A stretch of 64,000 nt of DNA from a virus: the IMG/VR virus record IMGVR_UViG_3300042547_000432. One strand, given 5' to 3'. The notes beneath the pieces were generated by a model. The model was given only the letters and a program-made list of their open reading frames with translations. It searched no databases and was not told the DNA's origin. Numbering within the stretch: the stretch's first letter is position 1; every line of letters begins with the position of its first letter. Both the position numbers and the translations under genes were made by a program. Positions 332 to 44,658 of this stretch are shown here, piece after piece.

Positions 332-1864
332 TTAATTTAAGAAAATTGCTGGAGCAACTAAATTAATCTTGGCGGCTGTAATACCTATAGTTAGTGCGGT
401 AGGTGGCGTTCCTGGTGTATATGGTCCCGCTGTCATGTAAACTGCTCCTTTGCCAAACATGGCAAGATCAGAAGCATCAGACCCGACATACATTCCTGGT
501 TTATTCATTTTAATTAGAGATGGTGCCAACGTTTTGTCTAGGATGGGTGTTACAATATCAGCTACAACACTCTTGGCATTTCCAGAAGCAAAGTTGCCCA
601 CCTTTGTACTAAACACTATGTCGCCTTTGGTGATGTTGAATGTGACTCCACCATCAGCAGACAATCCATTTTCCACTAGCAACAATGGTTTAGTAATTTC
701 TGGCGTTGAGGTTGTTGCTGGCGTAATATCTTTAAACTTATTGTTAATTGTATACGCCGCCTTCGCTGTTATCATTGGAGGAGTTGCTGATGCTGTTGCT
801 ATAACAGCTGCTAAAGCAGGGTTTGTATTTAAAACTGTAGTTGCTTTCTTGCCGCCAATTGTTTCAAGCATGTCACGAGCGACATTAATATCCAAGTCAC
901 CAGCAGAATTGATGTTCAACGATGAAGCAGCGTTGTCCATTTGAATGGTATATTCTCCATCCACTTTCATAAACTTAGCTGACTCTTGTGTAACCTTTGT
1001 TGATGCTGTATTATTATAAGAACCACATCGCATGTCAATCAATCCACCATATTCCTCTCCTGGCTTTGCTGAACCTGTTTTTTCTCCTGGTCCACCACCA
1101 GCGAGTAATTTGATGTCAGAACCTTTTAACTCTAATGATTTTGCTGCTGCTAAAGTCAGGTTGCCAGCAGATTTAACCGCAACATTTCCACTTCTAACTT
1201 CTATTGCTAAGTCTCCGTTTACAACCAACGAAAATGCTGTTCCCTTTACAGACGGATTCTCTGCTGCTAAGGCATCATTGTCATTGTTTACTTCAATAGC
1301 AAGATATTCGTTGATTTTAATTTGAGATGGTCCATCACTATGAATGGACATGTTGCCCGTGTTTGGGTCGTTTGATGGATTTTTAACTGATGATAAAAGC
1401 AAAGAACCATTTGGTTCTACACGTACTCCAGCTCCTTGTGCTGTTCTCACTTGCCAGAACGCACCACCAGTTAACTCATTATATCCTTCTTGCTTAATTA
1501 AATTACCACCTTGCGATGTTGTTGTTTCTAGTTTTGTTATGTCTGCTACTTTACTTGCTTGAACATCTGATTCTGGATTTAGTGAACCAGAACTTCCAAA
1601 TCCCTGTAGTTCTGGTGGAATCCATGCTCCAATATCTTGAAGCACTCCCATCACTTCAGAACCAAACTGGTCTATCTCATCTTGTATGTCTCCAAGAAAA
1701 CTATTGACACCAGAAGTAGCATCTGCTAAACTTGGAAGGTTTAAATTAGCATCTGGGGTGAAGTTTCTTAATCCAGTACCGCACTTCCCGCTTACAGTAG
1801 GTCTGGGAAGACTACGTGCTCCTGTTCTTAAATCGTTCTGTAATTCTAACCAGTTCTTTGGCAT
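332..1864 (-). CDS. gp5 C-terminal-like baseplate spike/needle protein (second half of split gp5)
   Basis: 510 aa directly after gp5; beta-rich repeats; C-terminal KINLVAPAIFLN typical of gp5/VgrG spike ends. Confidence 0.65.
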   Translation of the reverse strand: MPKNWLELQNDLRTGARSLPRPTVSGKCGTGLRNFTPDANLNLPSLADATSGVNSFLGDIQDEIDQFGSEVMGVLQDIGAWIPPELQGFGSSGSLNPESDVQASKVADITKLETTTSQGGNLIKQEGYNELTGGAFWQVRTAQGAGVRVEPNGSLLLSSVKNPSNDPNTGNMSIHSDGPSQIKINEYLAIEVNNDNDALAAENPSVKGTAFSLVVNGDLAIEVRSGNVAVKSAGNLTLAAAKSLELKGSDIKLLAGGGPGEKTGSAKPGEEYGGLIDMRCGSYNNTASTKVTQESAKFMKVDGEYTIQMDNAASSLNINSAGDLDINVARDMLETIGGKKATTVLNTNPALAAVIATASATPPMITAKAAYTINNKFKDITPATTSTPEITKPLLLVENGLSADGGVTFNITKGDIVFSTKVGNFASGNAKSVVADIVTPILDKTLAPSLIKMNKPGMYVGSDASDLAMFGKGAVYMTAGPYTPGTPPTALTIGITAAKINLVAPAIFLN

Positions 1865-35447: not shown

Positions 35448-35475
35448 AAAAAGGGGGCATATGCCCCCTTTAAAA
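35446..35475. terminator. Bidirectional intrinsic terminator
   Basis: A-tract-AAGGGGGCAT/ATGCCCCCTT palindrome between convergent genes. Confidence 0.8.
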
Positions 35476-35835: not shown

Positions 35836-35875
35836 TTTTATATATGATATTGAGATTGTAACATTCAATACCAAA

Positions 35876-36246: not shown

Positions 36247-36247
36247 A

Positions 36248-36320
36248 GGCAGTAGGTAGATTTGAACTACCGACCATAGGAATATGAGACCCGTGCTCTG
36301 CCAGACTGAGCTATACTGCC
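36248..36320 (-). tRNA. tRNA-CAT (elongator Met or Ile2), imperfect anticodon stem
   Basis: CGGGT-CTCATAT-TCCTA; perfect acceptor GGCAGTA/TACTGCC. Confidence 0.7.
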
Positions 36321-36324
36321 AAGT

Positions 36325-36414
36325 TGGGAGAGGGTGGAATCGAACCACCATTGCCAATGAACGGAATCGAACCGTCTCTGATACCGTCGTACCCACCATC
36401 CAAGGTGCTCTCCC
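36325..36414 (-). ncRNA. tRNA-like RNA with two T-arms and no anticodon arm
   Basis: Acceptor GGGAGAG/CTCTCCC+A; GGTGG-TTCGATT-CCACC; internal ACGG-TTCGATT-CCGT. Confidence 0.65.
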
Positions 36415-36417
36415 AAG

Positions 36418-36489
36418 TGGAACCGACAAGATTTGAACTTGTGACCGCTCGGTTATCAGCCGAGTGCTCTACCACTGAGCTACGGTTCC
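36418..36489 (-). tRNA. trnI: tRNA-Ile(GAT)
   Basis: CTCGG-CTGATAA-CCGAG. Confidence 0.92.
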
Positions 36490-36643: not shown

Positions 36644-36645
36644 AG

Positions 36646-36742
36646 ATGGGAGGGGTATCCCACACGAAGTTGCTTACGGATTACGCTTCGTAGCCTTATG
36701 AATCCTGCCATCATCCGATGGTGGTTAGAAATCCCTCCCCAA
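36646..36742 (-). ncRNA. Putative structured RNA closed by a 7-bp acceptor-like stem
   Basis: GGGAGGG/CCCTCCC+A closing stem; internal CCATC/GATGG, GGATT/AATCC, ACGAAG/CTTCGT helices. Confidence 0.45.
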
Positions 36743-36821
36743 TTCCAGTTGTTGCTACAACATTTCTCTACACACTGGCAAACTCTAAGAAATGCGTGAG
36801 AGTTAGAATACTGACTCTCAA

Positions 36822-36895: not shown

Positions 36896-36899
36896 AAGG

Positions 36900-36990
36900 T
36901 GAGAGAGGAGGGAATTGAACCCCCGATGGTTCTTATGTAACGGTTTTACAGACCGCAGCCACACGTATTGCCAACAGTAGCCACTCTCTC
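36900..36990 (-). tRNA. trnY: tRNA-Tyr(GTA) with enlarged D-arm
   Basis: GCGGT-CTGTAAA-ACCGT; acceptor GAGAGAG/CTCTCTC; D region GGCTACTGTTGGCAATACGTGTGGCT. Confidence 0.8.
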
Positions 36991-37112: not shown

Positions 37113-37150
37113 ACAATAAAATAGGGGGGCGGTTTTGTCAACTGCCCCCC
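37113..37150 (-). promoter_or_regulatory. Sigma70 promoter for the main tRNA run, -35 inside a terminator-like hairpin
   Basis: TTGACA-17-TATTGT; GGGGGGCAG-TTGACAAAA-CCGCCCCCC then T-rich tail. Confidence 0.8.
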
Positions 37151-38328: not shown

Positions 38329-38365
38329 ATTATATATGAGGGAAGTGGGGGTTGTCAATCCCCCC
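38329..38365 (-). promoter_or_regulatory. Sigma70 promoter, -35 inside G/C hairpin
   Basis: TTGACA-18-TATAAT; GGGGG-ATTGACAA-CCCCC. Confidence 0.7.
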
Positions 38366-40237: not shown

Positions 40238-40330
40238 TAGGGGCGGAGGGACTCGAACCCCCAACCGCACGGTAATCTGCCGTATACGAAAGGTATAAGC
40301 TTTCCGCTCTGCCAATTGAGCTACACCCCC
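40238..40330 (-). tRNA. trnI: tRNA-Ile(TAT) with long variable arm
   Basis: GAAAG-CTTATAC-CTTTC; variable region GTATACGGCAGATTACCGTGCGGTT; A73. Confidence 0.75.
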
Positions 40331-41119: not shown

Positions 41120-41157
41120 TATTATATAGGAGGTCTGGGGGGTCTGTCAACCCCCCA
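41120..41157 (-). promoter_or_regulatory. Sigma70 promoter, -35 inside G/C hairpin
   Basis: TGGGGGG-TTGACAGA-CCCCCCA; TATATAAT downstream. Confidence 0.7.
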
Positions 41158-43833: not shown

Positions 43834-43851
43834 GTGTGTAGGATTATTATA

Positions 43852-44253
43852 TCACTGCTGAGGGCAGTTGTCAAGCCATGGAGCACAGAGTCTCATTGGA
43901 GGGGCGAGTGCTTTACACTCATCACTGTAGCATAATGTTTCGTCATTTGCTTCTTCTATATAGCGTGGTTTGTATACTTCTGCTTTTGATAAACCAGATT
44001 GTCTCCAATAATCATTGATAGCATTGGTGACATCTCTTTCTACTCTACGTTTTACTTTGTCAGGGTCTTCAGTAATAACCCTGTTAATAGAAGTTTGTGG
44101 GAAATATTTTCTTTGAATCTCGTCAAATAAATCCCAAAGATTGTTTTCATGGATTCCTGTACATTGTGAAAGTGCTGCGATAATAGAAGATAATACTATA
44201 CTGGTTGTTATAATAGTTTTTTTAGAGGGCTTGCCAATGTGAAAGTTAAACAT
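43852..44253 (-). CDS. Exported/lipoprotein-like hypothetical protein
   Basis: Hydrophobic N-terminus ending ALSQC; Cys-rich C-terminus. Confidence 0.55.
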   Translation of the reverse strand: MFNFHIGKPSKKTIITTSIVLSSIIAALSQCTGIHENNLWDLFDEIQRKYFPQTSINRVITEDPDKVKRRVERDVTNAINDYWRQSGLSKAEVYKPRYIEEANDETLCYSDECKALAPPMRLCAPWLDNCPQQ

Positions 44254-44295: not shown

Positions 44296-44658
44296 TCAAA
44301 CCCGTGAATAGCAGACGCTGGCAACGCCTTGACCTGGGTGAGCGATAGAAGAGAAAGCACCATAAGACAAGTCAAGATCTCTACCTCCAACGTAGGGACC
44401 GCGATCATTTACACGCACAATCACTGTCTTGCCATTTCGTTGATTTGTAACCCTTAATCTAGTTCCGAAAGGAAGCCATTTGTGTGCGACTGATTTGCCA
44501 TAAGCATTGTATCTTTCGCCGTTTGCAGTCGTCTGCCCATGATATCCGTCACCAACTCCATAATGTGATGCGAGGGAACATCCGCTCGCTGCCTTTGCCT
44601 GTAGGGGTGCCAGTCCTGAAATAGCAACGGCAAGAATCGAAAGTGATTTAAGAAGCAT
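44296..44658 (-). CDS. rlpA: RlpA-like (DPBB) lytic transglycosylase with signal peptide
   Basis: ASHYG...TTANGERYN...AHKWLPFGTRLRVTN..NGKTVIVRVNDRGPY. Confidence 0.9.
   Translation of the reverse strand: MLLKSLSILAVAISGLAPLQAKAASGCSLASHYGVGDGYHGQTTANGERYNAYGKSVAHKWLPFGTRLRVTNQRNGKTVIVRVNDRGPYVGGRDLDLSYGAFSSIAHPGQGVASVCYSRV

Follow-up and report, generated by a model that had tools for sequence, protein, structure and literature searches.

A conserved RNA gene with two T-arms in cyanophage tRNA arrays, a likely non-decoding tRNA mimic

Introduction

Phage tRNA genes work in counter-defence against tRNA-cleaving systems; the retron-Eco7 and Septu defences cut tRNA-Tyr, and phage tRNA arrays matter in that arms race (PMC13096335). 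The non-tRNA RNAs that lie in such arrays have been without an assigned function since the species 1 and species 2 RNAs of phage T4. What, then, is a 90-nt gene that sits in a cyanophage tRNA operon, has the acceptor stem and the T-arm of a tRNA, and carries a second T-arm inside and no loop for reading a codon? In the present study, this question was addressed by computational analysis of a window, that is, the whole 64,000-nucleotide stretch of viral DNA under study (IMG/VR record IMGVR_UViG_3300042547_000432). The window belongs to a T4-like cyanophage fragment of 85.7 kb; the nearest cultured relatives of this phage are the Synechococcus phages S-CREM1 and S-PM2 of the family Kyanoviridae.

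Results

Genomic setting of the element

The minus strand of the window holds 23 tRNA genes, a wcaG RNA and a glutamine riboswitch between positions 35875 and 43834. The element (36325-36414, minus strand) is located within a tight run of 12 tRNAs that extends from Lys to Arg, where the upstream tRNA-Ile(GAU) (36417-36489, minus strand) ends 3 nt from it and the downstream tRNA-Met(CAU) (36247-36320, minus strand) starts 4 nt from it. A preliminary description of this DNA had stated that the element is spaced like a tRNA gene between the Ile and CAU tRNAs, and the gaps of 3-4 nt bear this out. Upstream of the 12-tRNA run, a sigma-70-like promoter (TTGACA-17 nt-TATTGT, 10/12) was found at 37113-37141 (minus strand), and on the same strand the nearest strong terminator-like hairpin downstream, a 9-bp stem followed by a T run, lies at 35450-35471. 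The element is thus placed inside a promoter-to-terminator tRNA run, both ends of which are consensus matches only. A U precedes the gene at position -1 in 35 of 37 loci, and the neighbouring tRNA genes likewise have no encoded CCA.

Several other features of the array were observed. Three perfect 12/12 matches to the sigma-70 consensus are present on the tRNA strand (38329-38358, 41121-41150 and 43846-43874, minus strand), and these matches suggest several strong early transcription units. The gene at 36898-36990 (minus strand) was called tRNA-Arg(gcg) by ARAGORN, but its Rfam alignment gives the anticodon loop CUGUAAA, that of tRNA-Tyr(GUA); this tRNA-Tyr has a large D-arm (5-bp stem and 14-nt loop with UUGGCAAU) and a long variable region, and it scores 34.7 bits. 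The 176-nt spacer between tRNA-Glu and tRNA-Asp (36645-36820, minus strand) is conserved in S-CREM1 (L001:2340-2513) and short in S-PM2. Its first hairpin shows a compensatory change (GAGAG/CUCUC versus GGAGA/UCUCC), and the words GGGGAGGG and CCCCUCCC occur near its middle and near its 3' end, respectively; the spacer is probably another unannotated structured RNA. Finally, tRNA-Ile(UAU) (40238-40330, minus strand) has a long variable arm with the stem ACGG/CCGU, which is also the stem of hairpin H3 of the element (see below), and with CAGAUUA as its loop instead.

Sequence and predicted fold

Read on the minus strand, 36325-36414 is a tRNA-shaped RNA gene of 90 nt, and both the reading and the minimum free energy (MFE) fold (-35.8 kcal/mol) agree with a layout of five helices, namely the acceptor stem, H1, H2, H3 and the T-arm, followed by A73. 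The acceptor stem is formed by the 5' strand GGGAGAG (36408-36414) and the 3' strand CUCUCCC (36326-36332), a pairing found in the MFE fold and in the comparative analysis alike. H1, a D-arm-like hairpin (CACC-UUGGAU-GGUG, 36394-36407), follows with zero connector nucleotides. At the position of the anticodon arm stands H2, a 5-bp stem with a GACG tetraloop (GGUAC-GACG-GUAUC, 36380-36393). A junction (36377-36379), which reads AGA in 24 of 33 sequences and is missing in the B3 group, leads to H3 (GACGG-UUCGAUU-CCGUU, 36360-36376), an internal replica of the T-arm at the variable-arm position. The 10-nt linker CAUUGGCAAU (36350-36359) carries a D-loop-like UGG(C/U)AA motif and contains UUGGCAAU, an 8-mer that also lies in the D-loop of the tRNA-Tyr of the same phage. 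The true T-arm (GGUGG-UUCGAUU-CCACC, 36333-36349) is flush with the 3' strand of the acceptor stem, and the gene closes with the discriminator A (36325), CCA not being encoded. An exact 11-nt repeat, GGTTCGATTCC, is present inside the element.

The stem lengths of 7/4/5/5 bp are those of the canonical acceptor, D, anticodon and T stems, and the number and order of the hairpins are those of a class II cloverleaf. In this layout, H2 corresponds to an anticodon stem that has been sealed by a tetraloop. Four departures from a tRNA were observed: the 4-nt GACG cap, the copy of the T-arm in place of the variable arm, the D-loop-like UUGGCAAU strand in front of the true T-arm, and the missing connector nucleotides 8, 9 and 26. 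The preliminary description was right about the acceptor GGGAGAG/CTCTCCC with A73 and the canonical T-arm, which the minus-strand reading and the MFE fold both contain, and about a second internal T-loop hairpin, which takes the place of the variable arm of class II tRNAs. Its "short GTAC/GTAT stem" does exist, but it is actually 5 bp long and capped by GACG. The statement that there is no anticodon arm holds for the codon-reading loop and fails for the stem, since a 5-bp, tetraloop-sealed equivalent occupies the right place. Thermodynamic support for the fold taken alone is modest to weak (z = -2.2; 7 of 200 shuffled sequences were equally stable). A CAUUG/CAAUG mini-arm in the linker was rejected because the pairing is lost in relatives; the proposed CAUU/AAUG pairing is not kept, for example, in CUUUGGCAAU and CUUCGGCAAU.

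Comparison with known RNA families

The Rfam tRNA model (RF00005; cut-off of 29 bits) matched all 23 real tRNAs of the window, and it gave no match on 36325-36414 even at E values up to 10. At the Rfam gathering thresholds nothing was reported on the element, and at E values up to 10 only a tRNA-Sec match and fragments of YrlA appeared. ARAGORN called the element in 10 of 41 loci, inconsistently as Ser(cga) or Leu(cag); in the window it reported a truncated tRNA-Ser(cga) in which H3 was used as the anticodon arm. A 7-bp acceptor stem, a 5-bp T-stem with a T-loop and a single discriminator are present, as in a tRNA. The arm after the D-like arm has the 4-nt GACG loop where a tRNA has its anticodon loop, and the only 7-nt internal loop, UUCGAUU, has U at the would-be position 37, a position occupied by a purine in 414 of the 429 distinct tRNAs from these arrays.

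Individual families were rejected as follows. For tRNA-Ser, the base-paired long variable arm is absent, and the discriminator is A, C or U in 32 of 33 sequences, where the real Ser tRNAs of the arrays have G. The tRNA-Sec model (RF01852) reached 21.5 bits (E = 0.13) against a cut-off of 47; the acceptor stem is 7 bp, where tRNA-Sec has an 8+5 or 9+4 acceptor/T helix, and the UCA loop is absent. ARAGORN, which also searches for tmRNA, reported none, and the element is only 90 nt long with G-C at pair 3:70, where alanine charging calls for G.U. The YrlA model (RF02553; cut-off of 69) gave a maximum of 24.7 bits in the stretch and 20.7 bits on the match touching the element, and all of these matches lay on tRNA junctions; a TROVE/Ro60 gene (PF05731) was absent from all five carrier genomes, and the control genomes were positive. 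As for the rnaC type of T4, the element is likewise a non-decoding structured RNA in a phage tRNA operon with a T-arm and a terminal stem at its end; homology to T4 rnaC or rnaD was ruled out, as these score at most 13 bits with the family covariance model R1, and the fold of rnaD is unconvincing (z = -0.8). No description of the element was found in the literature searched. The S-CREM1 genome was annotated with tRNAscan-SE and Rfam, and the element is absent from the listing in that paper (PMC9964418); one large screen contains unnamed tRNA-like candidates from IMG/VR (PMC10690425).

Members and distribution of the family

A search of viral contigs for pairs of T-loop words separated by 8-30 nt, with BLAST as the next step, gave the first homologues, and later pattern scans were anchored on the linker and T-arm, on H2, H3 and linker, or on H3, linker and T-arm. 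Pattern scans of viral contigs, BLAST and a metagenome scan together yielded at least about 50 loci, comprising 27 distinct close sequences and 6 distant ones. The metagenome scan gave at least 6 further members among the matches listed, most of which were chance matches. Some members were retrieved with patterns that fixed the H3 loop, and an unbiased measure of how invariant that loop is comes only from the members of the linker/T-arm-anchored scan, among which the loop deviates only in phage B3. With the covariance model R1, the element of the window scored 113.7 bits, the close members 86.9 bits or more, and ordinary tRNAs 33 bits or less. The six distant members (the L054 type, L308, L046, L312, L040 and the second copy in L309) scored 45-68 bits; each folds independently into the same five helices, and all stem sequences differ. 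In a scan of bacterial genomes with a 21-mer, only unrelated ordinary tRNAs were found (Gemmatimonadota and a few other MAGs). The homology search thus disposed of the idea, put forward earlier as a refutation, that the element might be unique to this genome as a recent fusion remnant, and it found a conserved, covarying family in its place.

The element was identified in the cultured phages S-CREM1, B3 and B23, in unannotated gaps of their tRNA arrays; the S-CREM1 gene occupies 44482-44571 of OP535465. It is present as a single copy in the genome record of the window, in two complete UViGs (234 and 249 kb), in S-CREM1 and in B3; no family member was found at the syntenic locus of S-PM2. In myovirus arrays the element always stands flush between tRNA genes with spacers of 2-4 nt, and the neighbours vary (Ile/Met in the window, Ile/Phe in S-CREM1, Ser/Ser in B3 and many contigs). 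Close copies (87.6 bits) also occur in contigs L303 and L304. The portal and terminase region of L303 matches siphovirus S-CBS4, which shares its host with S-CREM1, and no tRNA is adjacent to the element in L303, L304 or L308. Such copies without adjacent tRNAs, including that of the S-CBS4-like contig, indicate that the gene is retained in its own right and has been transferred among unrelated cyanophages. The L304 element is bordered by two endonuclease VII-type genes, and phosphoesterase and ribonucleotide reductase beta genes lie nearby (L304:3514-5690, minus strand); the flanking genes may be homing endonucleases, and the region may be a mobile hot-spot. No RNA-binding candidate was found among the ORFs neighbouring the stand-alone copies, and no clear promoter was found upstream of the L304 element.

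Some related loci showed further peculiarities. Contig L309 carries tandem paralogous double-T elements, with 691-779 adjoining 569-657 (both minus strand); in the second copy, a 2-nt connector follows the acceptor stem, the internal T-loop reads UUCAAUU and the linker reads UAAGGUCAAG. Related arrays also contain an odd tRNA-shaped gene (L022:10513-10585, L072:1706-1778, L147:8890-8962 and L169:5859-5930) with the anticodon region GGCAGACAAUGCACUUGG, which ARAGORN called inconsistently as His(atg) or Leu(caa) and which is absent from the window. A variant tRNA-Asp(GUC) with the loop CUGUCUA, and hence a pyrimidine at position 37, was observed at L019:3397-3472, L084:5415-5489, L127:3630-3704 and about seven more loci. 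ARAGORN also reported a tRNA with a four-base anticodon (attg) at L306:3088-3175 (plus strand) and one with the ochre stop-reading anticodon (tta) at L093:1311-1383 (minus strand), and both loci carry distant double-T elements.

Covariation and sequence conservation

In an alignment of 19 close relatives, 99.8% of the cells were paired and 12 of the 26 base pairs showed changes on both sides; none of 500 shuffles matched this result, and slid controls gave only 0-2 pairs of that kind. When the distant members were included (33 distinct sequences), 99.3% of the cells were paired and 22 of the 26 pairs covaried, again with none of 500 shuffles matching. The 33-sequence alignment was fitted to the model and leans towards it, and slid controls of it reached only 49-61% pairing. 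A MAFFT alignment had placed H3 out of register in L079, L128 and B3, and model-fitted alignments were used instead. Among the 33 sequences, covariation extended to all five helices: 7 of 7 pairs in the acceptor stem changed on both sides, and 3 of 4 pairs covaried in H1, 5 of 5 in H2, 4 of 5 in H3 and 3 of 5 in the true T-arm. A G.U pair is conserved at the second pair of H2 (28/33) and at acceptor pair 7:66 (21/33), indicating that the selected molecule is the RNA of the tRNA strand.

The unpaired segments differed in their conservation. The H1 loop contains UUGG or UGG in 31 of 33 sequences and a GG doublet in 32, B3 being the exception, and the H2 loop is GACG in 28. The H3 loop reads UUCGAUU in 31 sequences, and its closing G-C pair, a signature of T-arms, is present in all 33. 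The linker contains GGCAAU in all 27 close members, and UGGYAA was found in four of the six distant ones. The terminal T-loop drifts as in ordinary tRNAs (UUCGAUU in 19 sequences, UUCGAAU in 8 and others, including UUCGACU and UUCAAAU, in 6). The discriminator is A in 20, C in 7, U in 5 and G in 1, and the acceptor sequences of the distant members are unrelated. The element of the window shares 87.8, 77.2, 91.1 and 86.7% identity with its counterparts in S-CREM1, B3, L129 and L084, respectively, and the median identities of tRNAs with the same anticodon in these comparisons were 79, 67, 72 and 70%. The element thus exceeded the tRNA median in all four comparisons and every matched tRNA in three of them. 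Both of its T-arm sequences are absent from all other tRNAs of these arrays, and the comparison therefore points to no recent donor tRNA. Since the element is conserved above the adjacent tRNAs and is also present in an unrelated cyanophage, these sequence comparisons indicate that it is almost certainly a functional RNA.

Discussion

Alternative explanations

One alternative is that the element is a working, if aberrant, tRNA, in which H3 is the anticodon arm, H1 and H2 form an expanded D region and the linker is a long variable loop. The anticodon would then be CGA (UGA in B3), reading the serine codons UCG/UCA or serving another amino acid. The segment that runs from H3 to the 3' end does have exactly the geometry of a tRNA, with a 5-bp stem, a 7-nt loop with U33, a 10-nt stretch, the T-arm and the acceptor strand, and ARAGORN called Ser(cga) in 5 loci. 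The only change in the H3 loop of B3 falls on the would-be wobble position without leaving the codon box of serine, tRNA-Ser genes often adjoin the element, and the syntenic slot in S-CREM1 and S-PM2 is a tRNA-Ser. Other tRNAs of this array also show odd expansions, and the tRNA-Asp variant has U37. Against these points, the H3 loop agrees with a T-loop at seven of seven bases and has an invariant closing G-C pair, and U37 together with U38 would be unusual for an anticodon loop. The UUCAAUU loop of the L309 paralogue shows the exchange of purines that is usual at T-loop position 57; taken as an anticodon, it would instead be a switch from Ser to Leu. SerRS needs a variable-arm stem. The linker contains none, and the discriminator is variable, with the G of the real Ser tRNAs in only 1 of 33 sequences; lacking both a paired variable arm and G73, the element lacks serine identity. 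In addition, connectors 8 and 9 are absent, an extra hairpin is present at the hinge, the Rfam tRNA model does not match the element, and the phage already encodes Ser(UGA) and Ser(GCU). We consider it unlikely that the element is a working odd tRNA, and just as unlikely that it reads serine codons through such an anticodon.

Three further readings leave decoding aside. Paired T-loops are a known universal motif for docking on the tRNA elbow, as in the Stem I of T-boxes, RNase P and the L1 stalk, and the two T-loop motifs here, only 16 nt apart and with the internal one nearly invariant, might interdigitate and so form a stacking platform for the elbow of a second tRNA; host or phage tRNAs would thereby be held or sequestered. 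Both T-loops, though, are full 7-nt loops on 5-bp stems with G-C closure rather than the pentaloop or bulge form, two conserved GG segments could provide each of them with a D-loop partner of its own, and the changes in B3 link the H1 loop with the H3 loop; a tRNA receptor of this kind is improbable. The constant position of the myovirus copies, flush between tRNA genes with 2-4 nt spacers, and the occurrence of other non-tRNA structured spacers in the same array would agree with a cis element of the polycistronic transcript, which would punctuate its processing, folding or stability and have no function once released. The stand-alone copies and the mobility of the gene argue against a purely cis-acting role: the L303, L304 and L308 copies lie far from any tRNA, the neighbours differ among phages (Ile/Met, Ile/Phe or Ser/Ser), and the element is better conserved than the tRNAs that it would serve. 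We accordingly give this explanation little weight. Least probable by far is that the locus is a decaying fusion of two tRNAs, or a DNA-level target of a homing endonuclease or of recombination on the GGTTCGATTCC word, even though that 11-nt word is exactly repeated, endonuclease VII-type genes flank the L304 element, and SegB-type endonucleases recognise a T-arm word (PMC2330249). Such a reading is contradicted by the 22 of 26 compensatory pairs, by conserved G.U pairs that are meaningful only in this strand of the RNA, by loops and a linker that are invariant across genera, and by conservation above that of real tRNAs.

Proposed mechanism

The explanation that we favour, with a modest degree of confidence, is that the element is a conserved non-decoding tRNA mimic, which is matured by tRNA enzymes and binds a factor that recognises the tRNA body. 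It would be transcribed together with the tRNA operon. By analogy with known tRNA maturation, RNase P would cleave at the 5' end, where a U at -1 and the acceptor/T-arm minihelix are present; host enzymes would trim the 3' end and add CCA, as for the neighbouring tRNA genes that lack it; and m5U54 and pseudouridine-55 might be formed in both T-loops. Each T-loop would then dock one GG segment, that of the H1 loop or that of the linker, and give a rigid body with two tRNA-like elbows, for which two T-loops and two GG segments are enough to form two D-loop/T-loop contacts. In B3 alone, the second G of the H1 loop is changed to A and the C of the H3 loop to U, and the nearest relative, L247, keeps both original bases; these paired changes, a single event, suggest a contact between the H1 and H3 loops. 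From the conservation of the motifs and this one covariation event in B3, the element may form two elbows.

Codon reading would not be possible for such a molecule. Charging by a specific synthetase probably does not take place either, as the variable discriminator and acceptor sequence argue against it; variability of the discriminator alone is a weak argument, because the discriminators of phage tRNA-Gln, tRNA-Glu and tRNA-Phe vary as well. The mimic would instead act in trans by occupying a protein or ribonucleoprotein that recognises the T-arm, the elbow or the acceptor of tRNAs, most likely as a decoy or competitor of a host factor directed at tRNAs in the course of infection. The preliminary description had likewise conjectured that the product should be processed and CCA-tailed and could be a decoy for tRNA-targeting toxins, RelA/SpoT or EF-Tu. 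Among the genes that accompany the element, no candidate partner was found: Ro60/TROVE is absent, and the siphovirus flanks encode endonuclease VII-type proteins, a phosphoesterase and ribonucleotide reductase beta. A role as a trans-acting decoy would fit the counter-defence function of phage tRNAs (PMC13096335).

Significance

It is possible, and we put it forward tentatively, that the family represents an undescribed class of phage RNA, which has no anticodon, contains two elbow modules with a T-loop and a GG segment each, is matured like a tRNA, is exchanged between unrelated cyanophages and serves as a tool of anti-defence or host take-over. If so, two-elbow RNAs could jam a host enzyme that senses tRNA shape, such as RNase P, the CCA-adding enzyme, a stringent-response factor or a defence that cleaves or modifies tRNAs; alternatively, they could dock other tRNAs by their elbows. 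The family is sharply defined and strongly covarying, and it is common to Synechococcus myoviruses and a siphovirus. Three cultured phages carry it (S-CREM1, B3 and B23), one of them with the model host CB0101, which makes deletion, tRNA-seq and pull-down experiments feasible. A recurrent gene class of this kind is missed by tRNA finders and by Rfam, indicating that the non-coding content of phages is under-annotated.

Comparison with known systems

Among cellular RNAs, the class II tRNAs (Ser, Leu and Tyr) share with the element a five-way cloverleaf with a hairpin between the anticodon arm and the T-arm, stems of 7/4/5/5 bp and a length of 85-93 nt. The element differs from them by a 4-nt loop at the anticodon position, a replica of the T-arm as the variable arm, the absence of connectors 8, 9 and 26, a 10-nt linker and a variable discriminator. 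Y RNAs of the YrlA type are, like the element, non-coding, have a tRNA-like module (a T-arm and a D-arm mimic) and also occur in phage tRNA regions, but they end in a Ro-binding helix and not in an acceptor stem. The tRNA-like RNAs of murine gammaherpesvirus 68 are virus-encoded, tRNA-shaped, processed and CCA-tailed by the host, and not known to be aminoacylated; they belong to a eukaryotic virus, are transcribed by RNA polymerase III, are linked to miRNAs, and have a four-arm shape with a single T-arm. The double T-loop motif of T-box Stem I, RNase P and the L1 stalk also places two T-loops in one RNA. In that interdigitated motif, pentanucleotide T-loops in bulges or distal loops are interlocked to bind the tRNA elbow, whereas in the element both are complete T-arms of the tRNA type, each with a possible GG partner. 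The nearest known kind of RNA is that of the stable RNAs of the T4 tRNA cluster, of which RNA species I and II are mentioned in PMC2330249. Like the element, T4 species 1 RNA (rnaC) is a stable non-tRNA RNA in a phage tRNA operon, where it lies at the operon end, and it ends in a T-arm (CCGGG-UUCGAAU-CCCGG) enclosed by a terminal stem. Unlike the element, it is 139 nt long, has another body and a single T-arm, and is not homologous (13 bits with R1).
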